From Candidatus Acidiferrales bacterium (GTDB lineage Bacteria; Acidobacteriota; Terriglobia; Acidiferrales; UBA7541): DNA of 64,000 bases. This document shows, piece by piece, positions 6,416 to 51,330 of the stretch; the stretch's first letter is position 1; each line of letters begins with the position of its first letter. The translations under genes and the position numbers were made by a program. A model generated the notes under the pieces. The model saw nothing but the letters and a program-made list of their open reading frames with translations, was not told where the DNA came from and did not search any database. The DNA is taken from NCBI GenBank assembly GCA_963759275.1, contig CAVWYZ010000014.1:865201-929200 (forward strand), in the 5' to 3' direction.

Positions 6416-6429
6416 ATCGGAGAACGAAT

Positions 6430-9104: not shown

Positions 9105-9113
9105 GCTCTCCCA

Positions 9114-10874: not shown

Positions 10875-10965
10875 GCGGTCGATTCGCAGTTACCGGGTGC
10901 ATGCCGCGCATTGCTGTTGAGATAAATCCACAGATCGAAGGAAGACATTTCAAACACTAAAGACA

Positions 10966-11886: not shown

Positions 11887-12086
11887 GAACAACCCTGCCA
11901 TCCTAAGGGAGTTCGTAAAGTGCTTCCGACTTTGGCTCGCGACGACCAAGGACCTGCCTGTACTTCAGAACAGTTTGAGTGACACATGCCGTGTGCTACG
12001 GTGGTGCCACCTAAGCTCTCTAACCCCACGGCGTTCTCCATTCCCGGAATCTATTCTCTGTTGGCTTTCGCTCGAAGGAATTCGCT

Positions 12087-15530: not shown

Positions 15531-15641
15531 CTTGGAGCGATGTAGGCTGCATGGTTTTGGCTTCGTGGACCTTCGTGGTTGTCTTGGATTCATTGGAACA
15601 AGGGTATCCGTGCGGACCAGACTGACTGCTCTCCATAACCT

Positions 15642-16367
15642 ATGACTGCAATATCGGTACAACTGCCCTCCCATTGGACCGATGAATTGCTAGCCGCCGC
15701 CCGGACGGGCGACAAAGACGCCTTCAGTGCTTTGGTGGCCGGGCTGTCTCCGCGTCTTCACCGACTAGCGCGCCGCTTGACGCGAAACATAGAAGACGCC
15801 GAAGACGTGTGTCAGGAATCGATCTTAAAAGCGTTTACCAAGCTGGACCAATTTGCGGAGACACAAGAAGCGGCAAGTGATGATTTCCGCAATTGGCTTA
15901 CGACCATCACGGTGAACTCCGCGATCGATTGTAACCGGCGGAAACGGGCTTTCCAGATTGTCGACCTGGACGAACGCTCTTGCCCACACCGCGCGTCCTA
16001 CCAGACATCATGTGGATGGTATAGCGAGAATCCAGAAGGGTTCTACGCGCGGAAAGAACAAGCTCGGATCGTTGTGGATGCCATAACGAAACTGCCGAGG
16101 CGACTGCGAAATGTGTGCCTTCTCCGGAATGTGATGGATTTTTCCACTAAGGAAGTCGCCGCTCAATTGGGGATTTCGACGAATGCCGTGAGATTACGTT
16201 TATTTCGTGCGCACGGACAATTAAGAAAGAGTCTTGGGGTGATGGCGGTGGAACGCCGGCGGAAATATCGTCGCACGACACAATCCGGCGCCGCGAATCC
16301 GAGGTGGCAGCGCAATCGTAAGATCACGAGTAGAAATGATGCGCCTCCAGTAATTCTGCCTAATTGA
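15642..16367 (+). CDS. ECF (sigma-24 type) RNA polymerase sigma factor
   Basis: Region 2 (DAEDVCQESILKAF..L..F; WLTTITVNSAID) and region 4 (LP..LR.V.LLR....STKEVAAQLGISTNAVRLRLFRA). Confidence 0.88.
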   Translation: MTAISVQLPSHWTDELLAAARTGDKDAFSALVAGLSPRLHRLARRLTRNIEDAEDVCQESILKAFTKLDQFAETQEAASDDFRNWLTTITVNSAIDCNRRKRAFQIVDLDERSCPHRASYQTSCGWYSENPEGFYARKEQARIVVDAITKLPRRLRNVCLLRNVMDFSTKEVAAQLGISTNAVRLRLFRAHGQLRKSLGVMAVERRRKYRRTTQSGAANPRWQRNRKITSRNDAPPVILPN

Positions 16368-16608
16368 TTTCAGGCAGCTCGGCTCTCATCAATTCAGTAA
16401 GCGAGTCTTTCCTTCCTGTGCGGCCGCGCGTGCAGCTACGCGCGCGAGTACTGGTATAACCAGAAGTACTCCGCTCCTGTACCCCCCTCGAAAATCGCAT
16501 TGTACTTTAATCGTACCTTTGTACAGGTATCTTCCCGCACTTCCTCACTGCTAGAGTGAAATTCCCGGTTCTCGACCCCCATACACAGTCACCCGAACCG
16601 AATCTGAA

Positions 16609-21581: not shown

Positions 21582-22128
21582 GTTCCCTCCTCGACGAAAA
21601 AGGGTAACCGGATATCTGGGTGTGCGGGGATGACCACCAGAGTTGCGGGGGACTGAGAGAATATGGCAATGGGGTCCAGTCCGCAACATTATTATTAAGC
21701 AGGAGACGCCAGGCGATGGCTCAGTCGACCTCGAACGCGACCCTGGGAACTATTGGGTACTCGTGCGCAGTTCTCGGTGTCACAAAGTTTAGCCGAGCTT
21801 CCCGGGTGCACCCCGTTACGATGAAGACGGTCACGAACATCGAGACCGGGGGCCAATCTTAGAAATCGCTACAAAGAGTTCGCCCCGAAGACCCTGGAAA
21901 CACTTGTGACGCACGTACTATCCCTCGTCCTGCCGCTGGAGGATAAGTACTCCTGGTGCCACTAATGAGCGAGGACGTGGCTAGGCGAACGCTTCCGCCT
22001 TGCGGAGCTAGCAAACTGTCTCGCTTCGTTTCGCGGCAGATGCAACGGGCGAGAACGTCCTGTTGGTCTTTGTGACATGAGTTCTGATTGTGGCGGTGGC
22101 GGGTGCGAAAGGAACGGAGGAGACCGTT

Positions 22129-22629
22129 GTGACGAGCGAGAAAAGCATCGAGTTACTCAACAAGTCCGTAGCAGATGAACTGGCGGCAGTCCACCAGTAC
22201 ATGTACTTCCACTTTCACTTGGAGGATCTGGGCTTCGCGCCGTTAGCGAAACTGTTCCAGCGCACAGCGATAATGGAGATGGGCCACGTGGAATCGTTGG
22301 CGGAGCGGATTCTATTCCTGAAAGGCGAAGTCAGGATGGCGGTAGCCGAGCCGGTCGAGACGGTCACCGACCCTGCAAAGATGCTGTCCAAGGCGATCGA
22401 CATGGAACAGGGAAGTGCGCGCGATTACAACGGTGCCGCGCAGATCTGCGGGGCCAACGCCGACGCCGTGTCGAAGCAACTTTTTGAACATTTAGTAGCC
22501 GATGAAGAAGGACACCAGAACGAATTTGAGCGGCAACGGGAAAACATTCAACGCTTTGGTCCAAGTTACCTCGCGCTCCAGTCGTTCGGCACCGTCGCGG
22601 CGCCAGAACCGGAGCGGAAGAAAGAATAG
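22129..22629 (+). CDS. bfr: Bacterioferritin
   Basis: GGAGG + GTG start; ELAAVHQY, EMGH (heme Met), ERILFLKG and EEGH ferroxidase-centre motifs. Confidence 0.88.
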   Translation: MTSEKSIELLNKSVADELAAVHQYMYFHFHLEDLGFAPLAKLFQRTAIMEMGHVESLAERILFLKGEVRMAVAEPVETVTDPAKMLSKAIDMEQGSARDYNGAAQICGANADAVSKQLFEHLVADEEGHQNEFERQRENIQRFGPSYLALQSFGTVAAPEPERKKE

Positions 22630-22686
22630 TCTGAGCATTGGGCCCCGGGAGCCTTGCTGAAGACTCGTGAAGAGCCGGAGGATCAG

Positions 22687-23820
22687 GTGGCTCAACGATC
22701 GGAGCACATCCTAGGCGCAGATCAGTTGGACAAACTGATTGAGGTGTTGGTGCGTAAGGGCTTCGAGGTCATCGGACCGACCCTGCGTGACGGAGCGATC
22801 GTCTATGACCATGTTGCGTCCGCCAGAGATCTGCCTAGTGGGTGGACTGACGAACAGGAGCCGGGGCGTTACCAGCTGAAGCGTCGCGAAGATGAGGCTC
22901 TGTTCGGATACGCGGTGGGACCACAGAGCTGGAAGAAATACACGCACCCAGCGGAAGTGCGGCTCTGGTCGGCCGCGCGTGACGATGGGACGTTCCGAAT
23001 CCTGAAGAATGAAGTGAAACCAGAACGTTCATATGCGTTTCTGGGGGCGCGAGCATGCGAGCTGGCAGCAATCGCGATTCAAGACCGCGTGCTGATCGAG
23101 GACCAATACCCTGATGCGACGTACGGCAAACATCGCAGAGGAGCGTTCATCATTGCCGTGCAATGCACTCAGGCCGCGGCAACATGTTTTTGTGCGTCAA
23201 TGGGAACAGGGCCGCAGGTGTCCGCTGGGTTAGACCTTGTGCTCACCGAGTTGCTTGGGTCCAAAGGGCATCGGTTCCTGGTAGCCACAGGCAGCGATCG
23301 CGGCGCCGAGGTACTCACCGAACTGGAATCGGTTCCCGCCACTGGAGAAGACCGTCAAGAGGCTGAAACGAGGGTCGCAGCGGCGGGTCGCGAGCAGGTG
23401 CGCAGCATCGACACGATAGGCATCAAAGAGCTCCTCTACGAAAACTTTGAGCATTCGCGCTGGGACAACGTGGCCAGCCGCTGCCTGACGTGTGCCAACT
23501 GCACGATGGTTTGCCCCACGTGCTTTTGCACGTCGGTGGAGGATGTGACCGACATTACCGGGGAGTACGCGGAACGGTGGCGCCGCTGGGATTCCTGCTT
23601 CACGCAGAGCTTTTCTTACATCCACGGAGGGAGTGTCCGAACCTCAGCCAAATCACGTTACCGCCAGTGGATGACGCACAAGCTGGCCTCGTGGATCGAC
23701 CAGTTTGGCAGTTCCGGATGTGTTGGCTGCGGGCGTTGCATTACCTGGTGCCCGGTGGGCATCGACATTACGGAAGAGGTCCGGGCGATTCGGGAGGGAG
23801 TGAAGAATGGAAACCCTTGA
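22687..23820 (+). CDS. hyhB: Group 3b [NiFe]-hydrogenase (sulfhydrogenase) beta subunit, 4Fe-4S dicluster
   Basis: [32 protein letters not shown] and [12 protein letters not shown] motifs. Confidence 0.9.
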
Positions 23821-24268
23821 GCGCATCATCACGGAGCACCCATTTTTCGTGGGGCTGGACGACGCCTTCACAAATCTGATGGTGGGTTGCGCGTCTAACG
23901 TACGCTTCCAAGCCGGCACCTACATCCTTAAGGAAGGAGACCCGGCAAACACGTTTTACCTGATTCGAGAAGGGAAGGTGGCCGTAGAGGTGCTCGCGCC
24001 GCAGCGCCCGCCGATCATCATTTCGACTCTAAGCAACGGAGAAATCCTAGGGTGGTCGTGGCTGTTGCCACCCTTTCAATGGAAATTCCACGCGCGGGCT
24101 GTCGAGGACGTGCGCGCCATCGCCCTCGATGGAAAGTGTCTGCGCACAAAGTGCGAGGAGAACCACGATCTCGGCTACGAAATTTTGAAGCGATTTGCCC
24201 GGATCATCGAATTGCGGCTCGATGCCACGCGCTTACAGTTGCTCGACGTATACGCAGTCCGGCGATAG
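23807..24268 (+). CDS. Stand-alone cyclic-nucleotide-binding domain protein (no HTH)
   Basis: [33 protein letters not shown]; ends without a Crp HTH. Confidence 0.85.
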
Positions 24269-24270
24269 TC

Positions 24271-25116
24271 ATGATGGCAACAAGAATCATCACCGACCCA
24301 ATGCTTCCGGAGCCTTTTGCGGTGCGAGAGGTAGCCAAGGAGACACCGGACACATTTACCCTAAGTCTCGAGCCCGAGAGGACTGTTAATAGAACTTTGT
24401 TCCAGCCCGGACAGTTCAGCATGCTGTGGGTTTTTGGAGTCGGTGAGTTGCCGATCTCGATTAGCGGCGATCCTGCATTGCACGATCGCGCGGTGTACAC
24501 GGTGCGATCCGTTGGTCGGGCCACGCACGCGCTGGTAAACCGGCGAGTGGGTGACAGCGTGGGCGTGCGAGGTCCATTCGGCGCGGGCTGGCCGTTAGAG
24601 GCCGCTCGGGGACGGGACGTCATCGTGGTCGCTGGCGGGATCGGCCTGGCGCCTCTGCGACCGTTGGTCTACGAGGTCTTGCAGAATCGGAAAGACTATG
24701 GGCGTTTGGTGATTCTATACGGAGCGCGCAGCCCGCATGACCTGCTCTATCGCAAGGAACTCGCGGCATGGGCGCGCAACCATGAGACGCAAGTGCTGGT
24801 CACGGTCGATTATGGTGGCCTGAACTGGCGGGGTCACGTGGGTGTGGTGACGACGTTGTTCAAGTACTCTCGGCTGCAACCTGGTCGTTCAGTTGCGATG
24901 GTGTGCGGGCCAGAGATTATGATGCGCTTCGTTACACGCGAACTCGAAACACACGGGCTCAGCCGCGGAGATATCTACGTTTCAATGGAACGCAATATGA
25001 AGTGTGCCGTTGGTTCTTGCGGGCATTGCCAGTATGGGCCACATTTCATTTGCAAAAACGGACCGGTGTTCTGCTACGAACAGCTACGGCCGCTATTGGA
25101 GAAGTATGAGCTCTGA
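24271..25116 (+). CDS. hyhG: Group 3b hydrogenase gamma subunit (FAD/NAD(P)-binding, 2Fe-2S)
   Basis: [52 protein letters not shown]. Confidence 0.9.
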
Positions 25117-25906
25117 ATCCAAGCGCAAGTCGGCGCATAAACCACGAATCGGCGTCTTCAAGTTCGCTTCCTGCGATGGCTGCCAGTTAAGCCTGCTTGA
25201 TGCCGAGGATGAATTACTCGGCGTTGTCGGAGCGGTGGACATCGCCTATTTTCCGGAAGCATCGCGCGCCATGTCGAAAGGTCCATACGACATCGGCCTC
25301 GTGGAAGGATCGATCACTACACATCAAGATGCCCAGCGCATCCAGGAAGTGCGGAGGCAATGCAAGACACTGATCACTATTGGGGCGTGCGCCACGGCCG
25401 GCGGCATTCAGGCTTTGCGTAATTGGAAGGATGTCGACGAGTTCATCCGAGTGGTGTACGCCACGCCGCAGTTCATCAGCACCCTGAAGCTCTCGACTCC
25501 GATAGCCGAGCACGTCCCTGTCGATTTCGAACTGCGCGGCTGTCCGATCAACAAATATCAACTTATAGAATTAATTACGGCGACGTTGGTCGGGCGCAAA
25601 CCGAATATTCCTTTATATAGCGTGTGCATCGAGTGTAAGCGAAAGGCGAATGTGTGTATCGCGGTGGCGCGCGGGATCCCTTGCCTGGGCCCGGTGACGC
25701 AGGCCGGGTGCGGAGCGCTGTGTCCCAGCTACGACCGTGGCTGCTATGGATGTTACGGACCGATGGAAACTCCCAATACACCGTCGCTGACGAGCCAGCT
25801 TCGGATTCTAGGGCAGTCGGATAGTCAGGTCGCACGGGCATTCCGTGGATTCAATGCCTGGTCGTGGCAGTTCCGCAAAGCCAGTGAGGAGTGCGAACGG
25901 ACATGA
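25106..25906 (+). CDS. hyhS: Group 3b hydrogenase small (delta) subunit
   Basis: [43 protein letters not shown]...GCYGCYG. Confidence 0.9.
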
Positions 25907-27213
25907 GCGTACACGGAGCGAGAACGATTCGTGTTGATACATTGGCTCGCGTGGAAGGCGAAGGTTCTCTCTACATCAAAATCGTGGGCGAACGCGTAGC
26001 CGATGTGAAATTCAAGATCTACGAACCTCCACGGTTTTTTGAGGCTCTTCTCCGCGGTCGTCACTTTTCCGAAGCACCGGATATCACGGCGCGGATCTGT
26101 GGCATCTGTCCTGTCGCTTACCAGATGAGCGCCGTGCACGCGATCGAACGGGCGCTCGGAGTCCGGATCGAACCCGCGGTTCGCACGCTTCGTCGTCTGT
26201 TTTACTGTGGCGAATGGATTGAAAGTCATACCCTTCACGTCTACATGTTGCACGCGCCGGATTTTCTCGGCTACCCGGACGCGATCGCCATGGCGAGAGA
26301 TCACCGAGCGGTGGTCGAAAAGGCGCTTCGGCTGAAAAAGATTGGCAACCGGATTGTGCAATTGCTCGGAGGACGCGAGATCCATCCCATTTCCGCCGCA
26401 GTTGGTGGCTTTTACAGGACGCCCACCAAGCAACAGTTGTCGGCTTTAATCAGCGATTTGGAATGGGCGCTCGAGGCCTCCCTGGAAACCGTGCGCTGGA
26501 CGGCCGGTTTAGAATTTCCCAACTTCGAGCAAGACTACGAGTTCGTCGCGCTTCGTCATGCGGACGAATATCCGTTCAATGAAGGGCGCCTGGTCTCAAA
26601 TCGTGGGCTAGATATTGACGCGGCGGAATACGAAGATCACTTCGTCGAGTCGCATGTGAAACATTCGAACGCCTTGCACTCCGTGGTGCGAGGTCGTGGT
26701 TCGTATTTGGTTGGGCCATTGGCGCGATTCAACTTGAATTTCGATAGATTGCCGGAGGTCGCACGCAAGGCGGCGCTCGAGGTGGGCCTACGACCGCCGG
26801 TAAAGAACATTTTTCGGAGCATCGTGGTCCGCGCAGTCGAAATCGTCTTCGCATGTGCGGAGGCATTGCGGGCTATCGACGAATACGAACCACCAGCCCT
26901 ACCGCGGATCGATGCGCCTAATCGGATGGGCGTTGGCCAGGCAATCACGGAGGCGCCGCGAGGTATTCTCTACCACCGTTATGCCCTGGATGACAACGGA
27001 CTGATTGTCGCCGCCAAGATCGTGCCGCCCACCTCGCAAAATCAGAAGCGGATCGAGGACGATCTCCGCGAGTACGCGGCCCAGTTGGTGGCTTGGCCCA
27101 TCGACGACGCGACCTGGAAATGCGAGCAGGCGGTGCGAAGTTATGACCCGTGCATCTCTTGCGCCACCCACTTTCTGAAAGTCGTGCTGGACCGGGAATC
27201 CGTTGGGGAGTGA
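25903..27213 (+). CDS. hyhL: Group 3b [NiFe]-hydrogenase large subunit
   Basis: LARVEGEG, L1 motif [11 protein letters not shown]2 motif [10 protein letters not shown], followed by a cleavable C-terminal extension. Confidence 0.95.
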
Positions 27214-32047: not shown

Positions 32048-32344
32048 TCACACCAACTCAATCATCACCCTGCGTCCGACCATCGCCGCCGCACGTTGAA
32101 GGCTAGAAAGCGTGATGTCATTTTTCGGATTGAGGAGCCGGTCAACCTGGGTACGGCTCGTCTTGAGCAGTGTGGCCATCTTGTTTTTGGATATCTTCTG
32201 CTTCCTCATGGCTTCGTCGAGCTGCCACGCGACCACCTCCTTGATTGCTTGCGCTTGCGATTCCTCAAAGATGCCCTCTTCCTTCAGGAAGTCATCAATG
32301 CTCGAACCCATGTATTTCTTGCGATTCTTGTGCTTTTTGCTCAT
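32048..32344 (-). CDS. XRE/HTH antitoxin (HigA-like)
   Basis: GSSIDDFLKEEGI.EE..A.AIK.V.AWQL..AM....ISK..MA..LKTSR.QVDRLL.P...TL.SL.RAA. Confidence 0.85.
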   Translation of the reverse strand: MSKKHKNRKKYMGSSIDDFLKEEGIFEESQAQAIKEVVAWQLDEAMRKQKISKNKMATLLKTSRTQVDRLLNPKNDITLSSLQRAAAMVGRRVMIELV

Positions 32345-32703
32345 CCTCGTAACTCCTTCCGGCGCTTCCGCGCCAAGGCCAAATCATCATCCAGCGTCGT
32401 ACGTGTTTTCTTGATAAACCCGTGCAGTGCGACAAGGTGCTCCTCGTGAAGGCAGCGCAGCACACGTGATGTCCGTTTCGTGGGGAGGTCCGTCCGGACT
32501 TCCCACAAACCGTTCCCCATCGGCCGGCAGAGCGGCATCCCGACGGGCCACCTCCATTGCGCACGCAAGAGGTCTTTCCCTATGGCGTGGCGCTCGATTT
32601 CAGGCAACCCTTTCAACCACTCTCGCACGGGCTCAGTTCCCGATTGCAGCCGGCAAAAAATCAGTGGGATCTTTCGCGGCCGCTGCTCTTCTTCTGCCAT
32701 CAT
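32341..32703 (-). CDS. RelE/ParE-family (Gp49/DUF891-like) toxin
   Basis: SGTEPVREWLK.L...ER..IG.DL..Q..WP.GMPLCR.MG.GLWEVR..L..LHGFIKKT; ATGA coupling to the antitoxin. Confidence 0.85.
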   Translation of the reverse strand: MMAEEEQRPRKIPLIFCRLQSGTEPVREWLKGLPEIERHAIGKDLLRAQWRWPVGMPLCRPMGNGLWEVRTDLPTKRTSRVLRCLHEEHLVALHGFIKKTRTTLDDDLALARKRRKELRG

Positions 32704-32999
32704 GCACCTTATGTAGTACAACTGTACCATAACAAGTACAACCATGCAAACATTTTGGCGAGAAAGGATTTTGTGGTCGATTGATGGTCCGACAACTGTT
32801 CTCGAGGTTATCCAAAAGGGGTTCTCTTACACGAGGGCAAGGGCTCGCAGCACGGCTACTACAATAACGTCCACACTGATAACGGCTGGGAAGGGAAGTA
32901 CACGCTCGCCAAGGCGCAGTCCCGCTGACCAATGAGAAAACTACTCTACTAAGGTTGCACTCGGTCGGGTTGTGATCTGTCCGGGATTCCCTTGCCACT

Positions 33000-34580: not shown

Positions 34581-34814
34581 CTAGGTGCTGCGATTGGCGG
34601 ACGCGGGACAAAGTGAACACATGAATTCGTAGCCGATATGGTCCGACCGTCCTTGCGTGGTCGTCACCCAATGACGATTAGTCCACGGTGGGTTTAGGCG
34701 AACGTGCTGTTGATGTCCGCACTCGAGGTCAGCAACCCAGTCGAAGCGTTCATCCAAGTGGAAACCCACGATTTTTCGGAGGGAACCAGCAACTGGTGCA
34801 CGCATGGGCTTCAT
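34581..34814 (-). CDS. DUF3565-like small protein (start uncertain)
   Basis: IVGFHLD...WVADLECGH.QHVR.NPPW.NR.WV...GR...G....C..C pattern. Confidence 0.7.
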   Translation of the reverse strand: MKPMRAPVAGSLRKIVGFHLDERFDWVADLECGHQQHVRLNPPWTNRHWVTTTQGRSDHIGYEFMCSLCPASANRST

Positions 34815-35122: not shown

Positions 35123-35382
35123 ATTTCCTCCAAGCCGAAGGTGTAGTTGTGAGGTAGGCGGCCTTGCAACTGCAGGAAGTCTAGCACAGCAAGCATTTCT
35201 GCTGTAATTCACCGGAGTTATTTTCGCGTGACACATGACAACCAAGTTGTGTAATCCGGGAGAAGGAGCGACCGTCAATCGCCATCTACGGTGATGAACG
35301 GACAAAAACCCAGTGGCCCCTTTTCGTGCTGCTTGTAGATGTCGATTTGTGAAGTTGCTCGTACGCTAGCCACGGATGTGCA

Positions 35383-37461
35383 TTAGGGTGCTTTATTCGA
35401 CGACGTTTTGGCCGCGGCGGCAGCCTGTGACAAGACATAGGCTTGAATCGCGTGCACTTGATCAGGCTTAAGCGCGTCATGGAACGAAGGCATGCCGCGT
35501 GATTCGCGAGCGCCTTCCAGCACGATGGATTCGAATTGATCTTGCGTCTCTGGAGTGGCATAGCGCAGGTCAGGAACGCTGGAGCCAGAGATTACGCCTA
35601 CTCCGTGGCAGTAGAAGCAGTAGCGCATATATAGGACATTGCCTTCGTGGATGGTGGCTGGTGCGGCATTCTTGTGAACCGCAACCGTCGGAAGCCCCTT
35701 GCGTCCGAATGGCGGAACTTCGAGGCTTGCGTTGGCACCAAGGGAAAAGGTCAGGACGCGGCCAAAGCCCCGCTTGACCGGGCCGCTGCCCGGGAGATTG
35801 ACTAGTCCGGCGGCGCCTCCCCAGCCAACCATGAGGGTCACATACTGAACTCCGTCCTGAAGATAAGTGACGGGCGGAGCCATGATGCCGGTGCCAGCGT
35901 CGAACTCCCAGAGTTTTTTCCCGTCGGTCGCGCGATAGGCGCACAGTATTCCGTCGGAGCGGCCTTGAAACACCAGGTTGCCTCCAGTCGCCAGGACTCC
36001 GCCGCTCTCGACCAATGGTAGGTCAGCACGCCACACTTCACGTTGCTCCACGGGATTCCACGCGATCAAATGGCCCGTCATGGGTGGAGCGGCCCGCAAT
36101 TTTGCCATCATGGGTCCGTCGTAGGATGCATCTTCACCGCGGTTCCAAAGCGTTGGGTTCGACTTCCAATTTCTGTCTGGAGCACTCAAGAAAGCTGAGC
36201 CTTCTCGTGCCGGTACATAAACCAGGCCTGTGGTGGGATGAAACGCCATGGGATACCAGTTATGTCCACCACCTGGCGATGGGGAAACGATGACGGCCTG
36301 CCAGCCATCGTGCGCGCTTGCCGATTCCTCTGGGCGCCCAGTTTTAGGGTCGATTCCATTGGCCCATGTGATCCCGTTTATGAACGCTTTTGCTGAGATG
36401 AACTGGCCGGTCTGGCGATCGAGCACGTAGAAAAATCCATTCTTCGACGCCTGCATAATGACCTTGTGCGTAACGCCGCCAATCGGCAAATCCGCGAGCA
36501 TCAGCGGTTGCGTGGCGTCATAGTCCCAGTTGTCTCCCGGCGTTACCTGATAGTGCCAAACCAGCTCGCCGTCGCTCGCTCGCAGCGCCAATATCGACGC
36601 CAGGTACAGATTGTCGCCCCCGCCTGGGCTACGCAGATCTCGGAACCATGAGATTCCGTTGCCCGTACCGGTGTAAACCAGATCGAGGTCGGGGTCGTAG
36701 ACTATGGAGTCCCATGGCGTGCCTCCGCCGCCTGCAACCCACCACTGTCCGTTCCAGGTTTTCGCTGCGGCTTCCAGTGCTTTGGACTCGAAGCCGCGGG
36801 CCGGATCGCCCGGCACTGTGAACGTACGCCAAATGAGTTTTCCGGTTTCCGCATCGTACGCGGAAATAAAACCCCGGACACCAAACTCTGAGCCAGCGTT
36901 CCCGATGAGAACTTTTCCTTTGGCGATTCGCGGAGCGCCAGTAATCGCATATGGTTTGGATTGGTCAACTGTGATTACATCCCACACGGGTTTACCGATC
37001 TTGGCATCCAGTGCGATCAGCCGTCCATCCAGCGTGCCGAGATAGACTTTGCCGTTGTAGAGTGCAACTCCTCGATTCACAACGTCGCAGCAAATCGTCC
37101 GGGCACGTGCACGAGGTACTTTGGGATCGAAGGTCCAGAGAATTTCGCCAGTCTTTGCCTCCAGCGCATACGCAACGCTCCACTCGCCCGTTGTGTAGAT
37201 CACCCCATTCGAGACAAGTGGTGTTGCTTCCAGCCCTCGCGTGGTGCCGAGTTCGCGATCCCACAACAGGCCGAGTTGGCCGATGTTTTGTTCGTTGATC
37301 TGGCTCAATGGGCTAAATCGTTGCTCGTCATTGGTCCTTCCGTGCATTGTCCAATCGACTCCCGCCGCGACTGCCGCTGTGGGAGAGGATTTCTTGCAAG
37401 CTCCCATGGTGAGGACCAGTGCGCCAACAAATAGCAGCGACATTTTGAGGTGCATCCTCAT
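35383..37461 (-). CDS. PQQ-dependent quinohemoprotein (type II) alcohol dehydrogenase, lipoprotein, with C-terminal cytochrome c
   Basis: Lipobox MGAC; GLEATP, vicinal CC (CCDVVNRG), GSEFGVRG, GTGNG, TPGDNWDYDATQP; heme motif CFYCH...VPDLRY. Confidence 0.92.
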   Translation of the reverse strand: MRMHLKMSLLFVGALVLTMGACKKSSPTAAVAAGVDWTMHGRTNDEQRFSPLSQINEQNIGQLGLLWDRELGTTRGLEATPLVSNGVIYTTGEWSVAYALEAKTGEILWTFDPKVPRARARTICCDVVNRGVALYNGKVYLGTLDGRLIALDAKIGKPVWDVITVDQSKPYAITGAPRIAKGKVLIGNAGSEFGVRGFISAYDAETGKLIWRTFTVPGDPARGFESKALEAAAKTWNGQWWVAGGGGTPWDSIVYDPDLDLVYTGTGNGISWFRDLRSPGGGDNLYLASILALRASDGELVWHYQVTPGDNWDYDATQPLMLADLPIGGVTHKVIMQASKNGFFYVLDRQTGQFISAKAFINGITWANGIDPKTGRPEESASAHDGWQAVIVSPSPGGGHNWYPMAFHPTTGLVYVPAREGSAFLSAPDRNWKSNPTLWNRGEDASYDGPMMAKLRAAPPMTGHLIAWNPVEQREVWRADLPLVESGGVLATGGNLVFQGRSDGILCAYRATDGKKLWEFDAGTGIMAPPVTYLQDGVQYVTLMVGWGGAAGLVNLPGSGPVKRGFGRVLTFSLGANASLEVPPFGRKGLPTVAVHKNAAPATIHEGNVLYMRYCFYCHGVGVISGSSVPDLRYATPETQDQFESIVLEGARESRGMPSFHDALKPDQVHAIQAYVLSQAAAAAKTSSNKAP

Positions 37462-37643
37462 GGGATCTCCCGAAAAGCCCGATTCAATTTCTCTTGGTTT
37501 CCACCTGACCGAATTGCGCACGCTGGCGAAGAGGATATGGGTGATTAGAAACTGAGATCAGTAGCGTGTCAAGAAGCGGAGCGGTCGCCAACGATGCAGG
37601 CTCTAGTTCAATCACCGAGCATGGTGCCTGATTGACGCTGCCA

Positions 37644-37806: not shown

Positions 37807-38754
37807 TCAGGTGTTTATCAGGCGGCAGGAGTCCGACTCTTCGTCGAAAGGGATATCTGGCGCTGGGGGATTGGTTTCAGCGATCGTTGTTAAGGGCCGC
37901 CCCTCCGCAGCTGGCTCGGGCGTTGGGGACTCTGGTAGAGCCGGACTTCTTGCGTTGATGAGGGGCGTGAGCCAGGGACTCTGCAGTGCGGCTAAAGCAA
38001 GCTCTTCTTCGAGGTCGTTGTAGAGCGAATCTGCCAACTCCTCTCGTGCTCTGTCCACGCAGTTTTCCCCATGCGTTCTTCGGAGTGACTCAAAGATGCA
38101 CCGTGCCGTGGTTGCACCGACCTTTGATTCGACGAGGTTTCGGGGTTTGCCGGTCTTGTAGGTCCGGAGTGCATTGCGGAACGTGACTAGCGAATCGCCT
38201 TGGCGCTCATCGAAGACTTCGGCAAGTGCCTGCACAAACTGCATTTGAAAATCGGATCGATCTTTGAGGTTCTGCTCGAGTTCCGTGAACTGTACAGTCA
38301 GTGTTTCTCTCAGCTTCTTGGCATCGGCCACATTGGAATCCCACAGTTTCTGGACTTCCTTGGCTAAAGCCCGTGCGTATTCGTTGCGCATTTGAACAGT
38401 GGCTCCGGCCGTAGCTGTTTTCGTCTGTTCGTCGATCATTTTCAGGCTGAATCTGGCGACAAGGACAAACACGCCTGTCAGGATCAGTCCCATGATTCCC
38501 AGTGTCCACATTTGCGTGTTGAGGACTTTTTGGTAGTAAGACTCGTACTGCTTCTGCGTACGCGTGATGTAGTCCTTTTCCATCACTGCGCTGCTTGCGG
38601 CTTTTTCGGCGGCATCGGCGCGCTCCTCGAGCTTCTTGAGGCGGTCCTCCTGGGTGGCGCGCGGGGCTCTTGGTGGCTGCTCAGAACAAAGAGCAGGGCT
38701 GAAAAAAGCCAGAACTGCAGCCAGAACCAGTAGGCGTTGGCGTATGGTGGTCAC
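37807..38754 (-). CDS. Hypothetical protein: signal peptide, coiled coil, one TM helix, cytoplasmic coiled coil
   Basis: Long ORF with a signal peptide and a TM segment ([19 protein letters not shown]). Confidence 0.65.
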
Positions 38755-39368: not shown

Positions 39369-39614
39369 ATGGCTAAAATCCGGGTCGCCAAACTATTCCG
39401 TAATGGACGCAGTCAAGCTGTCCGACTGCCGCAGGAGTTTCGCTTCGAAGGTGATCGTGTGCGTATTCGGCGTATTGATCAAGGTGTTCTGCTAGAACCC
39501 CTGATCCCCGATGCTGAGAGTTGGTTTGATGTACTGGATCGATTCAATACGGAACCGTTCATGGCCAAACGTCGCAGTCAACCAGTCACACCGCGCCGCG
39601 AGATCTTCAAGTGA
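39369..39614 (+). CDS. vapB: VapB (AbrB/MazE-type) antitoxin
   Basis: AKLFRNGRSQAVRLP.EFRF.GD.V.IRR...GV.LEP. Confidence 0.9.
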   Translation: MAKIRVAKLFRNGRSQAVRLPQEFRFEGDRVRIRRIDQGVLLEPLIPDAESWFDVLDRFNTEPFMAKRRSQPVTPRREIFK

Positions 39615-40042
39615 ATTACTTGCTGGATACCAACGCGTGTATCGCGCTCATCAACGGGAAGCCACCTTCTGTCCGCGCCAAATTTCAAAAGGCGACAGAA
39701 GCGGGAGCTCAAGTCTTCGTGTCTTCCGTGACCTTGTTTGAACTTTGGTACGGTGTTGCAAAGAGTTCACGCCGAGAATTCAATCGCAAGCGCCTTGAGG
39801 CCTTTTTTGCAGGCCCCGTCGATCCGCTCTCATTCGAGGATGGGGACGCCGAAATCGCTGGTTCCATTCGAGCTGACCTGGAGGTCGTGGGAAAGCCAAT
39901 CGGCGCTTACGATCTCCTGATCGCCGCACAGGCGATGCGCAACAAGCTCACGCTGATTACCGCAAATATCTCAGAATTTGCTCGAATTGAAGATTTAGTC
40001 TGGTCAGACTGGGGGGAATCCTTGACATCCCGAGCGCGGTGA
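39611..40042 (+). CDS. vapC: VapC PIN-domain toxin
   Basis: YLLDTNACI, SSVTLFELWYG, IGAYDLLIAAQA, LITAN..EF.RI; GTGA overlap with vapB. Confidence 0.92.
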   Translation: MNYLLDTNACIALINGKPPSVRAKFQKATEAGAQVFVSSVTLFELWYGVAKSSRREFNRKRLEAFFAGPVDPLSFEDGDAEIAGSIRADLEVVGKPIGAYDLLIAAQAMRNKLTLITANISEFARIEDLVWSDWGESLTSRAR

Positions 40043-41901: not shown

Positions 41902-43821
41902 CTAAGGCGTCAGACCGATTTTCTTTACGAGTGCACGATAACGTTCGTCGGAATGCAGGAAGTCGAAGACGGGCTCGTCTTGCAGAAACACGAGGTACTC
42001 TGAATGCTCGAGATAAGCTTCTTCCAGTTGTTGGAGCGTTTCGTCCTTCATTCCAAGGGCCGCGTAAGCTTCCGCCAAGTCCCAGCGTGAGACCTGCTGT
42101 TTGCGGTTGCGCGTCTTAAGGTTGTTTAGCTGCCATTGCAGGACTGCTCGTCTCCCCCCGCGCTCATAGGCACTTTGGATCACTGCTGCGGCTTCCTCTC
42201 CACGATTAATTCGAGTGTCCTCTTCAAGTTCATGCTCTGATTCCTTCTCCATGCCCTTGAACCCGTAGACCGTGGAAAGGAAAGAGTGGACCCACAACGC
42301 AGCCGTCCCGGCTTTGGCGCGCATGCGAAACTCTTCAAGCGCAGCGTCATACTGCCGCACGTAGTAATAAGCCCTGCCCAGGGCCCAGGGCCTCTCAAAA
42401 GGATCAATCTCAGTGGCCAGTTTTTGTTCCTGCAGCGCCTCCTCCGGGCGGTTCATGGCGAGAAGAATGTAGGAACGGATGTGGTGGGCTTCGGAGAAGT
42501 TTGGATCCAGTTCCAGCGAGCGGCGCGATTCCGCGTCCGCACGGCCCCAATCCCATTTACCAAACAGGTACACAAATGCCATGGCGTGGTGCCCCTCAGC
42601 GAAGGTGTCGTCCAGTTCAATCGCCTTACGGCCGGCGGCTTCCGCTTTATCGACGACTTCGCGCATGGGAGTGCGGCCGGTCTCGGCGAGCATGACGCTC
42701 ATGCAAAGACCTCCCCACGCCGGTGCGTAGTCACTTTGCAATTGGATCGCCTTCTCAAAATACTTCTGGCTTTCCAGCCAATTACCGGCCATCCACAAAT
42801 AGCGCCCCCGTAAATAGGCGTCGTGCGCTTCAGGATTGACGTGGCGCTGCGGCTGCGCCGGAACGGCAGAAACCTTAGCTTCCCGGGCGATGGTTGCAGA
42901 GAGTTCCTCGGGCAGTGACAGGGCGTTGTTCAGATCACGGTCATAGCTCTGTGCCCAGATGTGGGTGTCAGTGGGCGCATAGATCAACTGAAGATTTATG
43001 TGCACCTGCTTTGCGCCACGATTCACCGAACCTTCCAGAATTCCGTCGACTCCAAGCGCCTGCGCGATCTCCCGCAGCGGCCGGCTGACGCCTTTGTACT
43101 GCATGGCGGAAGTCCGTGAAACTACCCGCAGAGAACGGTTTTCCGCCAGCGCGGTGATTAGTTCGTCAGTCATGCCATCGGCGTAGTAATCCTGGGAGGC
43201 ATCGCCGGAAAGATTCGCCAGAGGAAGCACAGCAATAGAGTGAATCGGGCCGATGCTGTTTTTCGTAAAAACGTTTTTCGCAAAAACCCGGTCGCGCAGC
43301 CCCGCAACATTAAGTGCCCACGTCGCCCCTGCCGCCACGAGCAAAGCAACCGCCGCCCAGAGCCACTTTCGTGATGCTAAACCTTCGCCAGCACTGATCG
43401 GGCCAGCTTCCACGCTCGCTGGCGTTGAGACTTCATTCTCGGGAACCGGATTTGCGGAAGGGAGGATTTTCGCGGACGCTGCCGTTCCGTTCGCGTTCGT
43501 ACTCACGGCGTCAGATGCAAACCTGTAACCCTTGCCTGAAACCGTCTGTATGAACCGCGGCCGCTCTACGTCTTCCCGCAACGCGGTCCGAATCTTGCGA
43601 ATGGCAGTATTGATGCCGTGCTCGGTATCAAGGAAAACATCTTTGCCCCAAAGTCGCTCGATAATCTCCTGCCGGCACACCACCTGCCCATTTTTTTCCA
43701 GCAACAGGATGAGCAATTCCATGGGAATGCGTTCGAGCTTCAGAGGGCGATCATGGCATCGCAATTCGAAGCGGGAGCTGAGCAGTTCAAAATCGCCAAA
43801 GTTGTAGGTGGGCTCGGGCAT
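41902..43821 (-). CDS. Winged-helix (OmpR/CadC-type) + TM + TolB-N-like + TPR regulatory protein
   Basis: KLERIPMELLILL..RQEIIERLW..GINTAIRKIR.AL..RFIQTV.GKGYRF; SIAVLPLANLSGD.SQDYYADGMT; TPR tail. Confidence 0.88.
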   Translation of the reverse strand: MPEPTYNFGDFELLSSRFELRCHDRPLKLERIPMELLILLLEKNGQVVCRQEIIERLWGKDVFLDTEHGINTAIRKIRTALREDVERPRFIQTVSGKGYRFASDAVSTNANGTAASAKILPSANPVPENEVSTPASVEAGPISAGEGLASRKWLWAAVALLVAAGATWALNVAGLRDRVFAKNVFTKNSIGPIHSIAVLPLANLSGDASQDYYADGMTDELITALAENRSLRVVSRTSAMQYKGVSRPLREIAQALGVDGILEGSVNRGAKQVHINLQLIYAPTDTHIWAQSYDRDLNNALSLPEELSATIAREAKVSAVPAQPQRHVNPEAHDAYLRGRYLWMAGNWLESQKYFEKAIQLQSDYAPAWGGLCMSVMLAETGRTPMREVVDKAEAAGRKAIELDDTFAEGHHAMAFVYLFGKWDWGRADAESRRSLELDPNFSEAHHIRSYILLAMNRPEEALQEQKLATEIDPFERPWALGRAYYYVRQYDAALEEFRMRAKAGTAALWVHSFLSTVYGFKGMEKESEHELEEDTRINRGEEAAAVIQSAYERGGRRAVLQWQLNNLKTRNRKQQVSRWDLAEAYAALGMKDETLQQLEEAYLEHSEYLVFLQDEPVFDFLHSDERYRALVKKIGLTP

Positions 43822-44018
43822 GACACTCCACCAATTGGGGCAGCAACTATACCATCGATTGGAAGCAAGAAGTAAACAACCTGCCAAATCAGCAACTTAC
43901 AGCTTCACCTTTCTTCACCTCAATTCATTCGCCAGTCCTTGCCTTGTTGCGCCCTTCAGCTCACGATTCGCTCCCGCAGCCGCCAGCGTTTAGCGCGGCT
44001 CGATACAAAGGAGACATC

Positions 44019-47075: not shown

Positions 47076-47550
47076 AAATTATGTTCGCAGGGACAGAGTC
47101 GGCCAGGTATTGAACGTTGGTCCTTAATATTTCCGTTCACGCGGACGCGGAGAATGTTTTCGAGTTCTCTGAAGTGACGTTCCCCTCAGTTCCGCTGAAG
47201 GCTTACCCTCCTTCGCCACTCTGTGGAACCTCTTTGAGGTGTGATGCCCAGGTTCTCCATTCGGTTTCGGCTTCTTTCCAATTGCGTCCGCCGGTTCGGC
47301 TAGCTATAGCTAGACGATACCGTCTAGAGAAGGGACCGAGCCGTACCCCTTGTGACGATTTATCTTGACACTACCATCGGATGCGTACATGAATCGTTTT
47401 AACATGTGCCTCGGAGACTGCCCGCAACAACTCCCTCTGGAGTGCGCGACTTCAGTCCCACAAGCTCGGATGTGTTGGTCCATGCGGAGGCGCGACGCGC
47501 AAATTTTTTGTGAGCGACAGTCCACGACTTCCACGCGCAAGGAGCTAATC

Positions 47551-50500
47551 ATGACTGGGAATTGTTTCACGAAGCTTTCGAAACGGCTGGGCAGAATTTT
47601 CTTCGGGGGGTTCTTCCTTTTCCTGCTAGGTTTCCCCTCGATACTACTGGCACAGGGGTATTTCGGGACAGTGAGCGGCGAACTCACCGATCCGAGCGGC
47701 GCAGTGGTACCCGGTGCCAAGGTAGTCATCACCGACGTGGCCAAAGGTTTCACGTTTGCGGCTACGTCCGATAGCGCGGGACGTTATCTGCTGACTTCGG
47801 TTCCTCCCGGCGTGTACACCTTGACGGTAACCGTCGAAGGGTTTCAACGGGAAGTACGCACGGAGGTGAAGATCACCGTCAGCGAGAATGCCACGGCAAA
47901 CTTCCGCCTGAAGGTGGCGACTGCCACGCAGAGTGTGGAAGTGCAGGCGCAGACGCAGGCGCTGGCAACCGAGGACGCAGTGACGGGACAGGTGGTCAAC
48001 CGCAAGTTCATCAACGACCTGCCACTGGTTGACCGATATGTACTGGACTTTGTCATGCTGGCTCCCGGCATGAACGCCATGAGCGACCAGAACTCCGTGG
48101 GCGATACCGGAACAAACTTCGTCTCGAATGGTAGCCGCGGCGCTAGCGCGGACATTCTGATGGACGGCGCCTCCATCACCAACTTCGAACCCAATGGCGG
48201 CATCACGGCAGTGACCTATACTCCGTCCGCAGAAGCAGTCGAAGAGTTCAAAGTCGAGCAGACCAATTTCAGCGCGGAGTATGGGTTCACGGGTTCCTCG
48301 GTGGTCAACATGATCACGCGCTCGGGCGGTAATTCGTTCCATGGCGGAGTCTACGACTTTATTCGCAACAGCATGACTGACGCCAACAATTGGTTCGCCA
48401 ACGCGGCGGAGCAACCCATTTCTCCGCTGCACCGGCATAATTATGGCGGCACCCTTGGCGGGCCGATCAAGAAGGACAAGCTCTTCTTCTTCTTCGACTG
48501 GGATGGCACGCGCGACACGAGCATGGCCACCGCACAGGCTGGCGTTCCCACCGACGCGGAACGCCAAGGAAATTTTGGCGGACTTTGCGCGGCGGCCGGC
48601 GGCACCTTTAATTCCGCGGGAGAGTGCATGTCCGGCCAGCAAGTTGATCCCGCGGGACAGCTTTGGGATCCTTATTCGGGCGTTTATTACTCTAATGTTC
48701 CAAACGCGCCCGCGAATTACCCTACCTATTCCAGCGATCTGGGTTCTGGCGCATACCGCAGCACCTTTATCCCGTTTAACAACCTTGCTACCTACACAAG
48801 TCCGGGCAATCCCAACCTTAACGGCACGAGTTATCAGTTGCCCCAAGTCCGTGGCAATTTGATCGATCCGGTCGCCCAGAAGATGATGTCCTATTTCCCG
48901 GAGCCGAATTACGCGGGTAACGGCATCTATGACAATTGGGTTGGCGCCGGTTCCAATCGCGGCGCGAACGACCAGTTCGACCTGAAGATCGATTACCGCA
49001 TCAGCGAAAAGAACCTGCTTAGCGGGAAATACTCGCAACAGTGGTGGAATAACACTCCGTACAACTGCTTCAAGAATTTCACCGACCCCTGCGGCAGCGG
49101 CACCAATTCTGGTACGGCCCACTTGTTCGCCCTCAACGATACGTACACGTTCAGCCCCACGCTGATCCTCACCAGCACTCTTGGGTTTACCCGCGGCACG
49201 TGGAACATTGATGCCTACAACTCGAGCCTAAATTCGAATCCCCTTAGCACACTGGGCTTCCCGTCCTATTTAAATAGCAACGGGTTTATGGGGGTTCCGT
49301 CGATGTTTATCGGCGACTACTATTCCGCTGGCTATACCAGCATCGGCCAGGATCCCTATGGCAATTACCGGCAAGGCCAGGACACTGGGCAGTTGAGCGA
49401 GCTGCTAACGAAGATCAAGGGAAAGCACGAACTGAAATTCGGTTTCGAAGGACGCATCCACCAGATGAACTACATTCAGACCAACGCACCGAACGGCACC
49501 TTCGGTTTTAACAACCAAGGCAGTTCACAATGCCCGCTCGGCGATATCAGCCAGTGCGGCGGCGATTCCATGGCCAGCTTTATGATGGGGCAGATGGGTG
49601 GTAGCCAAGGCTATGAAATCCAGTTCCGGCCCGCCACCCAAAATTACCAGTTTGCGGGATTTGGCCAAGACAACTGGAAAGTGACACCCAAGCTGACTTT
49701 GAATATCGGGCTGCGCTATGACGTTAACCTGCCACGCACGGAACGCTATAACCGGCTGAACTCGTTCGATCCGGACGTCGTTAGCCCGCTAAATGGCGGC
49801 AAGATCTCCTACACCGACCCGCTTACGGGAAAAGCCGTGACGCGCACGCTGTACGGTGGTGAGGTCTTCGCAAATTCCAGCCAACGCACCAACTTCGACA
49901 CCGACTGGAAGGATATCCAACCTCGTTTTGGCTTTTCATATCTACTGACACCGAAGACCGTGATGCGTGGTGGATACGGGATCTACTTCGGCCAGTCGCG
50001 GTCGGGCGCCAGCGGCGTGTTGCCTTACGGTTCAGAGGGATTTAATCAGTGGACCGGGGCAATCGGCACCTACAACAACGATGGCGCCACGCCCTATTTG
50101 CATTTTGGGAACCCCTTCCCTAATGGCTTGATCCAGCCGCCGGGAAACACACTGGGCTTGCTGAATGACGTAAGTTACGGAGCCGTGGGTCCGATCCTGA
50201 CGCCGTTCTGGGCAAGAACACCTTATGAACAAGGATGGAGCTTCGGGTTCCAGCGTCAACTGCCGGGCGAAATAGTGGTTACGGCGGATTACGTAGGAAA
50301 GAAGGGAACGCGATTGCCGTACAACGGTGGCAACATCCTTGACATTTTGGGCCCCTCGGTCGAGAAGCTGTCTACCACGCAGATCGCCAGCCTTACCAAC
50401 TATGTGAACAATCCCTTTGCTTCGATCCTGACCACTGGCTCGATGGCCTCCTACTATGCCAACAGCTCCCTTACGGCATCGCAAGTTCAGGCCTATCAAC

Positions 50501-51330
50501 TGGAGTTGCCCTATCCGCAATACACCAGCGTCACGAGCGACGTGCCACCCATTGCCAACTCGATCTACAACGCCCTGCAACTGACGATCGAAAAGCACTA
50601 CTCCAACGGCTTGCAACTCTCCGCCAATTACACATGGTCCAAGTCCATTGACGATTCTTCCATGTACGACACCAACGTGGCATGGCTCGCGGGCACTACC
50701 GGTGGTCTCTGGGAACCTCAGGATCCCAACAAGCCTTGGCTCGACCGCAGCCTCTCAACCTTTGATGTACCGCAGATGCTCAAAATCAACTACACCTACG
50801 ATCTGCCAATCGGCCACGGGCGCCCTTATCTTAACGACATGCCTCGTGTGCTCGAGCTCATCGTGGGCGGGTGGAAAACTGCCGGTGTCTGGACCTTCCA
50901 GAAGGGATTTCCACTTAACTTTGAAACTTACGGAGCCTCGATACCGACCTACGGACCCCAGCGCCCCAATCTGGTCTGCGCACCGAAGCGTACGGGCGGT
51001 GGCGACGGCAATTGGGTGTACAACTACTTCGCGAACCCCAACTGCTTCCAGACACCGGATGCCTACACCCTGGGCAATGCGGCTCGGGCCCTCAGCTCGA
51101 TCCGGAGTCCGTTCTTCTTCACCACCAACCTGTCCATTTCTAAGGATTTTGGACTTGTGCCCAGCCACGAGAACGTGAAGCTGGAACTGCGCCTGGAGGC
51201 ACAGAATGCCTTCAACCACCCGGTTTTTGGCACACCGGACACGACTGTGGGCGATGCGAACTTTGGAGTCATCAGCTACACAACGGTCGGGCCCCGGCAA
51301 TGTCAATTGGCGCTGAAACTATCGTTCTAA
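47551..51330 (+). CDS. Oar-like TonB-dependent receptor (carboxypeptidase-regulatory-like N-domain + barrel)
   Basis: AAGGAG RBS; G..SG..TDPSGAVVPGAKV, EAVEEFKVEQTNFSAEYG, TRSGGNSFHG..YDF.RN, QDNWKVTPKLTLNIGLRY; C-terminal PRQ.QLALKLSF. Confidence 0.92.
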   Translation: MTGNCFTKLSKRLGRIFFGGFFLFLLGFPSILLAQGYFGTVSGELTDPSGAVVPGAKVVITDVAKGFTFAATSDSAGRYLLTSVPPGVYTLTVTVEGFQREVRTEVKITVSENATANFRLKVATATQSVEVQAQTQALATEDAVTGQVVNRKFINDLPLVDRYVLDFVMLAPGMNAMSDQNSVGDTGTNFVSNGSRGASADILMDGASITNFEPNGGITAVTYTPSAEAVEEFKVEQTNFSAEYGFTGSSVVNMITRSGGNSFHGGVYDFIRNSMTDANNWFANAAEQPISPLHRHNYGGTLGGPIKKDKLFFFFDWDGTRDTSMATAQAGVPTDAERQGNFGGLCAAAGGTFNSAGECMSGQQVDPAGQLWDPYSGVYYSNVPNAPANYPTYSSDLGSGAYRSTFIPFNNLATYTSPGNPNLNGTSYQLPQVRGNLIDPVAQKMMSYFPEPNYAGNGIYDNWVGAGSNRGANDQFDLKIDYRISEKNLLSGKYSQQWWNNTPYNCFKNFTDPCGSGTNSGTAHLFALNDTYTFSPTLILTSTLGFTRGTWNIDAYNSSLNSNPLSTLGFPSYLNSNGFMGVPSMFIGDYYSAGYTSIGQDPYGNYRQGQDTGQLSELLTKIKGKHELKFGFEGRIHQMNYIQTNAPNGTFGFNNQGSSQCPLGDISQCGGDSMASFMMGQMGGSQGYEIQFRPATQNYQFAGFGQDNWKVTPKLTLNIGLRYDVNLPRTERYNRLNSFDPDVVSPLNGGKISYTDPLTGKAVTRTLYGGEVFANSSQRTNFDTDWKDIQPRFGFSYLLTPKTVMRGGYGIYFGQSRSGASGVLPYGSEGFNQWTGAIGTYNNDGATPYLHFGNPFPNGLIQPPGNTLGLLNDVSYGAVGPILTPFWARTPYEQGWSFGFQRQLPGEIVVTADYVGKKGTRLPYNGGNILDILGPSVEKLSTTQIASLTNYVNNPFASILTTGSMASYYANSSLTASQVQAYQLELPYPQYTSVTSDVPPIANSIYNALQLTIEKHYSNGLQLSANYTWSKSIDDSSMYDTNVAWLAGTTGGLWEPQDPNKPWLDRSLSTFDVPQMLKINYTYDLPIGHGRPYLNDMPRVLELIVGGWKTAGVWTFQKGFPLNFETYGASIPTYGPQRPNLVCAPKRTGGGDGNWVYNYFANPNCFQTPDAYTLGNAARALSSIRSPFFFTTNLSISKDFGLVPSHENVKLELRLEAQNAFNHPVFGTPDTTVGDANFGVISYTTVGPRQCQLALKLSF

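Follow-up and report, generated by a model that had tools for sequence, protein, structure and literature searches.

Dehydrogenases that depend on pyrroloquinoline quinone (PQQ) have been sorted into 17 families, and the motif D-x-D, with a second aspartate two positions after the catalytic one, is treated as diagnostic of lanthanide binding (PMC11996626). The biochemically confirmed lanthanide users are only XoxF and the type 2b ethanol dehydrogenases ExaF/PedH (PMC11996626). The variants XoxF1 D320A and ExaF D319S both lost their lanthanide function (preprint 10.1101/2020.02.25.964783). PedH, which has the additional aspartate, requires lanthanides, whereas PedE, with a serine at the same position, requires calcium (PMC5487730). 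The type II quinohemoprotein alcohol dehydrogenases (ADHs) of known structure (1KV9, 1YIQ and 1KB0) are called 'PQQ-ADH type 4' in the Keltjens nomenclature, and heterogeneity of the metal motif within ADH type 4 was already reported in a 2025 survey (PMC11996626). Here, we describe a gene of this type from a stretch of 64,000 nucleotides (64 kb, in the following the window) of a Candidatus Acidiferrales bacterium (contig CAVWYZ010000014.1, positions 865,201 to 929,200). Its product carries the D-x-D motif, the additional aspartate is invariant among its close homologues and lanthanide use is predicted.

Family assignment and metal site

The product of the gene is a type II quinohemoprotein alcohol dehydrogenase (PQQ-ADH type 4) of full length, as had been proposed in a sequence-only reading of the window. 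The Pfam matches were PQQ (PF01011; 4e-75) and Cytochrome_CBB3 (PF13442), and the NCBIfam model TIGR03075 (methanol/ethanol family PQQ dehydrogenase) matched residues 30-549 with 608.3 bits (cutoff 480). The best PDB match was ADH-IIB of P. putida HK5 (1KV9; E 7.5e-217, 54.5% identity), followed by ADH-IIG (1YIQ; E 2.4e-200, 50.7%) and the QH-EDH of C. testosteroni (1KB0; E 9e-190, 49.0%). Each of these three aligns with the protein from end to end, heme domain included. The subsequent ranks were taken by the type III ADH AdhA (8GY2) and then by heme-less quinoproteins and XoxF/MxaF. In a rough neighbour-joining tree, calculated without bootstrap, the clade of the ADH adjoins 1KV9 and another D-x-D representative. 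The protein falls outside the XoxF and ExaF/PedH (type 2b) clades, with 34% identity to XoxF5 and with 6ZCV, 6ZCW and the XoxF structures at far lower ranks than the quinohemoproteins.

The Ca2+-type site, with Thr, Ser or Ala two positions after the catalytic Asp (+2), is common to every characterised type 4 member and is absent from this protein. In an ungapped alignment the ADH has WDYD where 1KV9 has WDFT and 1YIQ, 1KB0 and 8GY2 have WDYT. The XoxF5 used for comparison was a plasmid-borne protein named 'lanthanide-dependent methanol dehydrogenase XoxF5' by the NCBI pipeline (PGAP). Segments of the ADH and of this protein could be aligned as GSEFG with GGEFG, GTGN with GTGN, ICCDVVNRG with MCCDTVNRG and TPGDNWDYDATQ with TPHDEWDYDGVN. 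Furthermore, WDYD was aligned to the WDFD of 6ZCV. The entry named as PedH in PMC11996626 is 6ZCW, whereas the D-x-D chain in our alignment is 6ZCV, which is cited here solely as a D-x-D-bearing P. putida structure. As judged from these alignments, the quinohemoprotein scaffold carries the complete predicted lanthanide-type set Glu/Asn/Asp-x-Asp. The motifs listed in the sequence-only reading (WDYD at 36528-36517, GSEFG, GTGNG and CxxCH) were all found in their places in the translation, and its use of Asp at +2 as the mark of lanthanide-dependent XoxF, ExaF and PedH agrees with the XoxF1 and ExaF variants and with the PedH/PedE contrast cited above.

With the type 4 enzymes 1KV9, 1YIQ and 1KB0, the ADH has in common the propeller with the Cys-Cys pair, Glu, Asn and Asp, the linker and the C-terminal heme c. 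It differs from them in the Asp instead of Thr at +2, in a lipobox instead of a plain signal peptide and in its origin from Acidobacteriota instead of Proteobacteria. ExaF/PedH (PQQ-ADH type 2b) belong to the same propeller family and have the same metal-ligand pattern E / N / D-x-D, but lack a fused heme domain and use the separate cytochrome c550 (PedF/ExaB). To the propeller of the ADH they match far more weakly (E ~1e-110 to 1e-111) than 1KV9 does (1e-217). XoxF, represented by the XoxF5 named above, shares the four metal ligands and the Cys-Cys pair. It is distant in sequence, has no heme domain, uses the separate XoxG/XoxJ and has another substrate specificity.

AdhA, the type III ADH of acetic acid bacteria, also combines a PQQ propeller with a fused heme c (E 1.6e-166 for 8GY2). 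Its WDYT is of the Ca type, and AdhA forms a complex with a triheme cytochrome subunit and reduces ubiquinone; no genes for AdhA-type partner subunits adjoin the ADH gene. The D-x-D 'ADH type 4' sequences of Tara Oceans (PMC11996626) are of the same quinohemoprotein family and have the lanthanide motif. Those sequences are marine and known by motif only, whereas the ADH described here belongs to a Terriglobia-centred soil clade with a lipobox.

The N-terminus MRMHLKMSLLFVGALVLTMGAC satisfies a PROSITE PS51257-type lipobox rule. Cys22 is kept in 114 of the 116 homologues having an N-terminus, and the lipobox rule is satisfied in 93 of 113. This agrees with the lipoprotein anchor proposed in the sequence-only reading, and a lipid anchor is plausible for the ADH. 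Such an anchor would not be unique to its clade, since a similar lipobox pattern was detected in about one third of the full-length family representatives.

The acidobacterial origin assumed in the same reading was also supported, as the closest genomes are metagenome-assembled genomes (MAGs) of Candidatus Acidoferrales and other Acidobacteriota with up to 94% identity. DNA runs containing the gene derive from soil, rhizosphere, peat and wetland metagenomes.

Conservation and distribution of the additional aspartate

For the analysis of residue conservation, 120 database homologues with 73-100% identity to the ADH were aligned. Glu192, Asn268, Asp313, Asp315, Cys124, Cys125, Cys618, His619 and Met657 are invariant in all 120 sequences, and Cys615 is kept in 119 of them. 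A scan of species-representative genomes for orthologues returned 80 loci. At identities of at least 54%, W-D-[YF]-D together with the Glu and the Asn was found in 75 of 75 orthologues. Among these orthologues are those of MAGs labelled Candidatus Acidoferrales, Acidobacteriaceae, Terriglobales, Bryobacterales, Vicinamibacterales and Gemmatimonadales. Four matches at 49-51% identity (Chitinophagaceae, Spongiibacteraceae, a gammaproteobacterium and Parvularculaceae) have W-D-Y-T.

The Asp is therefore fixed across the clade down to 54% identity, with a switch to D-x-T near 50%. So sharp a fixation throughout the clade speaks for selection on the residue. Since Asp315 is invariant in the 120 homologues as well as in the 75 orthologues, the difference between T and D is not a chance substitution.

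The wider family was searched with HMMER against 1.84 billion cluster representatives (50% identity), and the best 150 matches were analyzed. Among these best 150, 44 have D-x-D and 55 have D-x-T. Within this set, 62 representatives are full-length and have an aligned CxxCH; for these, the numbers are 18 (D-x-D), 21 (D-x-T) and 6 (D-x-N). The sequence-only reading had described type II ADHs as typically WDYT or WDFT. This is correct for the characterised enzymes but does not hold family-wide, and the implied rarity of D-x-D is contradicted by the 18 of 62 heme-bearing representatives as well as by the heterogeneity already described in PMC11996626. Quinohemoprotein ADHs with D-x-D are thus no rarity among environmental sequences, where they are common, and that motif survey had flagged them before.

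In the rough neighbour-joining tree without bootstrap, the D-x-D sequences fall into at least five groups, which are interleaved with D-x-T groups. Besides Asp and Thr, the +2 position is occupied by Asn, Ala, Lys and Ser across the wider family. A change from Thr to Asp requires two nucleotide changes, and the single-step intermediates Asn and Ala are both found at this position. The distribution is compatible with repeated Thr/Asp switching in the type 4 family.

Predicted mechanism and alternative explanations

The ADH is probably a periplasmic, single-subunit, lipid-anchored quinohemoprotein which uses a light lanthanide. An alcohol or aldehyde hydrate would bind above PQQ in the eight-bladed propeller, and Asp313 would act as the catalytic base with transfer of a hydride to C5 of PQQ. 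The metal ion, held by Glu192, Asn268, Asp313 and Asp315, would polarise PQQ as a Lewis acid. A light lanthanide is predicted here because the fourth ligand Asp315 and its extra negative charge are present in Ln3+ enzymes and lacking in Ca2+ enzymes; the prediction of the metal thus comes from one residue. From PQQH2 the electrons would pass to the fused C-terminal heme c (CFYCH, Met657), then to a soluble periplasmic cytochrome or cupredoxin and finally to the respiratory chain. This acceptor is predicted, as is the lipidation, and short- to medium-chain alcohols are the presumed substrates by analogy with ADH-IIB. No dedicated partner gene would be needed. The ADH gene is a stand-alone unit, a position which fits an enzyme whose first electron acceptor, the heme c, is fused to it.

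For the large, soil-expressed D-x-D clade as a whole, which is centred on Terriglobia and also includes Vicinamibacterales, Bryobacterales and Gemmatimonadales, the balance tips slightly towards true lanthanide-dependent, lipid-anchored quinohemoproteins. The metal would then have been switched several times between calcium and lanthanide by the two nucleotide changes that separate Thr from Asp, possibly by way of Asn or Ala.

Soil metatranscriptome contigs with 85-99% identity tile the region from ~35379 to 37486, and none of them covers either flank. Since the contigs stop at the ends of the gene, the transcription unit looks monocistronic. A difference at position 36520 lies inside the WDYD motif and is a synonymous change of the Tyr codon. 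However, the contigs are assemblies derived from relatives, and carried-over DNA may be among them, which is one of several points to be held against a lanthanide enzyme expressed in soil.

Another concerns the known enzymes. All three solved soluble type 4 enzymes are listed as Ca2+-binding (PMC11996626, Table S1), and mGDH of E. coli has D-x-D yet is active with Ca, Mg, Zn or Sr (PMC11996626). In the literature searched no paper on a lanthanide-dependent quinohemoprotein was found, and a late-2024 review of rare-earth biomolecules makes no mention of quinohemoproteins. In addition, the scanned open reading frames (ORFs) of the window, which included all of at least 200 aa, gave no match to PqqB/C/E, lanmodulin or lut-like proteins, in line with the sequence-only reading, which had noted the lack of pqq and lut genes there. 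The ORFs within +/-8 kb of 79 orthologue loci were clustered, and pqq, lanmodulin and lut-type genes were not recurrent in these neighbourhoods either.

The metal site itself could not be read from a model: the AlphaFold2 prediction, based on 50 homologues with at least 73% identity, has a mean pLDDT (predicted local distance difference test) score of 62, with values below 50 at residues 307-317 and 267-288, which leaves the direction of Asp315 unreadable. In a mutual information analysis of 44 D-x-D or D-x-T sequences, no column was found to co-vary with the D/T switch, and none of the top-ranked columns is a known ligand position. Since no second residue co-varies with the switch, a remodelled metal site receives no independent corroboration from this analysis.

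Part of this evidence would be explained if the protein were a normal quinohemoprotein ADH using Ca2+ or whichever di- or trivalent ion is available, with Asp315 as a tolerated or tuning substitution. We regard this as possible but rather unlikely. It fits the use of Ca2+ by all characterised type 4 enzymes, the metal promiscuity of mGDH, the lack of lanthanide-handling genes near the ADH in the window and around the 79 orthologues, and the evolutionary plasticity of the +2 position within the family. Furthermore, XoxF1 produced without La binds Ca2+, though with little or no activity (preprint 10.1101/2020.02.25.964783). For a neutral residue, however, the fixation of Asp315 in a clade which has diverged to 54% identity and comprises several orders and two phyla would be unexpected. 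In every methanol/ethanol-family case tested, moreover, the Asp accompanies lanthanide dependence and loss of Ca function.

The metal prediction could also be right while the substrate is not a simple alcohol. A polyol, a sugar- or lignin-derived alcohol, a polymer alcohol or an aldehyde has to be considered, although we would accept this only tentatively and with doubt. Type II ADHs include polyvinyl alcohol, polyethylene glycol and tetrahydrofurfuryl alcohol dehydrogenases, and the identity to ADH-IIB is just 54.5%. Varied neighbours in subsets of the orthologue loci, namely SDRs, an O-methyltransferase, a 3-keto-disaccharide hydrolase, alpha/beta hydrolases and TonB-type receptors, could be taken in the same sense. 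ADH-IIB is nevertheless the nearest characterised protein. There is no conserved partner gene in the 79 neighbourhoods, where the commonest neighbour occurs in at most 13 loci, so that the context gives no real clue to the substrate. The recurring neighbours also include MacB/FtsX, Ser/Thr kinases and GNAT proteins, and no obvious link of any of them to the ADH was seen.

A decaying or non-catalytic 'empty' quinoprotein homologue, as described in Acidobacteria, is very improbable and at the sequence level effectively refuted: the ADH does have a secondary match to the NCBIfam acidobacterial 'empty quinoprotein' group A (TIGR04528), a degenerate paralogue without the catalytic Asp adjoins its closest orthologue and some MAG orthologues are split into two ORFs, but the TIGR04528 score of 352.6 bits is well below the cutoff of 650 whereas that of TIGR03075 is above cutoff, the ORF is intact, every cofactor residue is present with the invariant set found in 120 of 120 homologues, and relatives are transcribed.

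The ADH is a good candidate for a first biochemical test of a lanthanide quinohemoprotein, a variant which appears plausible from the sequence and for which lanthanide use is predicted. The motif-level idea is already in the literature; the contribution made here is one clean full-length representative together with an argument from clade-level conservation. If lanthanide use holds true, the members of the clade would be the first enzymes in which a Ln3+-PQQ centre feeds a covalently fused heme c and which are lipid-anchored at the membrane. The biochemistry of lanthanides would then reach beyond methylotrophs and pseudomonads, into the way in which dominant soil heterotrophs metabolise multicarbon alcohols. 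A confirmed enzyme would provide a self-contained Ln-PQQ-heme module for studying the effect of a trivalent metal on PQQ redox chemistry and on intramolecular electron transfer. Bioelectrocatalysis would be a further attractive use, since quinohemoproteins can pass electrons directly to electrodes. If the lanthanide is required, rare-earth availability would be tied to the way in which some of the most abundant bacteria of the soil turn over alcohols, because the clade is widespread in soil, rhizosphere and peat Acidobacteriota and relatives are transcribed in soil.

Gene features, genomic surroundings and paralogues

The features of the ADH gene and its product are listed in Table 1. The gene is located on the minus strand, which was not given in the sequence-only reading, with the ATG start codon at 37461-37459 and the stop codon at 35385-35383. 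An in-frame GTG upstream at position 37521 was considered as an alternative start and rejected, since the homologues begin at MRMHLKM or MKMRL and a Shine-Dalgarno-like site precedes the ATG. Scans for sigma-70 promoters and terminators around the gene revealed no signal above shuffle expectation, and the Rfam search gave zero matches.

Table 1. Coordinates of the ADH gene and of the features of its product in the window (residue numbers refer to the 692-aa protein).
Feature	Coordinates	Strand	Basis
CDS (coding sequence), 692-aa quinohemoprotein PQQ alcohol dehydrogenase	35383..37461 (stop included)	-	ORF and translation
Shine-Dalgarno-like GGGAGA, 4 nt 5' of the ATG	37466..37471	-	read from sequence; function presumed
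Signal peptide with lipobox (MRMHLKMSLLFVGALVLTMGA before C22)	37396..37461	-	fits PROSITE PS51257-type rule; lipidation predicted
Eight-bladed PQQ beta-propeller, residues ~30-553	35803..37374	-	TIGR03075; alignments with 1KV9, 1YIQ, 1KB0
Vicinal Cys124-Cys125, disulfide ring of methanol/ethanol-family quinoproteins	37087..37092	-	aligns with CC of XoxF5 and 1KV9
Glu192 in GSEFG, predicted metal ligand	36886..36888	-	aligns with Glu of XoxF5 GGEFG
Asn268 in GTGNG, predicted metal ligand	36658..36660	-	aligns with XoxF5 GTGN
W312-D313-Y314-D315, catalytic Asp313 and lanthanide-type extra Asp315	36517..36528	-	codons checked; alignments with XoxF5 and 6ZCV
C-terminal cytochrome c domain, residues 603-676	35434..35655	-	PF13442 (1.5e-9); heme domains of 1KV9, 1YIQ, 1KB0
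Heme c attachment motif C615-F-Y-C618-H619 (CFYCH)	35605..35619	-	confirmed in translation
Met657 in GMPSF, predicted sixth heme ligand	35491..35493	-	aligns with GMPSF/GMPDF Met of 1KV9, 1YIQ, 1KB0

The surroundings of the ADH gene consist of small ORFs, toxin-antitoxin pairs and a secreted 315-aa protein of unassigned function. An identical ADH protein was found on four other metagenome contigs, the flanks of which differ and are rich in transposases (IS110, DDE_3, rve). Since the same protein has differing flanks on these contigs, the region around the gene looks variable.

The gene of the 315-aa protein (37807-38754, minus strand) is the direct upstream neighbour of the ADH gene, in the same orientation. 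Besides a signal peptide, the protein has a coiled-coil-like region and a hydrophobic segment, and it gave no Pfam or NCBIfam match. This gene accompanies the ADH gene in three of the four other contigs, while an IS110 transposase is found in its place in the fourth. On the other side, the 3.7 kb between 31620 and 35383 contain only small ORFs without an Rfam match. These include a Gp49/HigB-like toxin with a helix-turn-helix antitoxin (32048-32745, minus strand) and a DUF3565 protein (34581-34814, minus strand). A VapBC-type pair is located at 39369-40042 on the plus strand, with a MazE/AbrB-like antitoxin followed by a PIN-domain toxin and overlapping stop and start codons. At 4-10 kb from the ADH gene, a CadC/OmpR-type winged-helix regulator with TPR repeats (41902-43887, minus strand) and a 1321-aa outer-membrane protein of the TonB-receptor type (CarboxypepD_reg and OMP_b-brl_4; 47365-51330, plus strand) were identified. 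Similar receptors occur near 8 of the 79 orthologue loci.

Some of the orthologue loci contain further PQQ-propeller genes. A second heme-bearing paralogue (locus L023, 11624-13687, plus strand; 36% identical to the ADH) is located 1.5 kb downstream of an orthologue with 94% identity. GVHS replaces WDYD in this protein, the Glu is changed to Asp and the Asn to Ala, and TIGR03075 matches it with a score below the cutoff. This quinoprotein homologue may be non-catalytic or have a different function, and a counterpart is not present in the 64-kb window. More distant paralogues with 26-36% identity, some of them with D-x-D, lie within 8 kb of the orthologue at three loci (L056, L062 and L076), which fits reports of many predicted lanthanide-type PQQ dehydrogenases in Acidobacteria (PMC11996626).

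Irregular orthologues were also observed. In the MAG loci L062, L072 and L074, and also in L046, L075 and L079, the orthologue is divided between two ORFs or is truncated, which could be due to frameshift errors in the assemblies or to real pseudogenes. One orthologue with 79% identity lies on a 2.7-kb contig binned as 'Candidatus Dormiibacterota' (L017). As the distribution is otherwise acidobacterial, this looks like a binning error and not like a true presence in that phylum.

Two larger loci are located farther from the ADH gene. At 22090-27213 (plus strand), the four genes of a [NiFe]-hydrogenase cluster come after a ferritin/rubrerythrin-like gene and encode a Fer4_22 subunit, a NAD-binding/DHODB Fe-S subunit, an Oxidored_q6 small subunit and a NiFeSe_Hases large subunit. 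For the large subunit, the best NCBIfam matches are sulfhydrogenase alpha subunits, with scores below cutoff, and these features suggest a group 3b-like NAD(P)-linked hydrogenase. The region 27-19023 (plus strand) comprises a large surface or exopolysaccharide-type locus with an Agd3-like deacetylase containing Big_2, an HlyD-type protein, a DUF3492/GT4 glycosyltransferase, an AAA_22 ATPase, an ECF-type sigma factor and two giant He_PIG/DUF1565/beta-helix proteins of 1147 and 804 aa.

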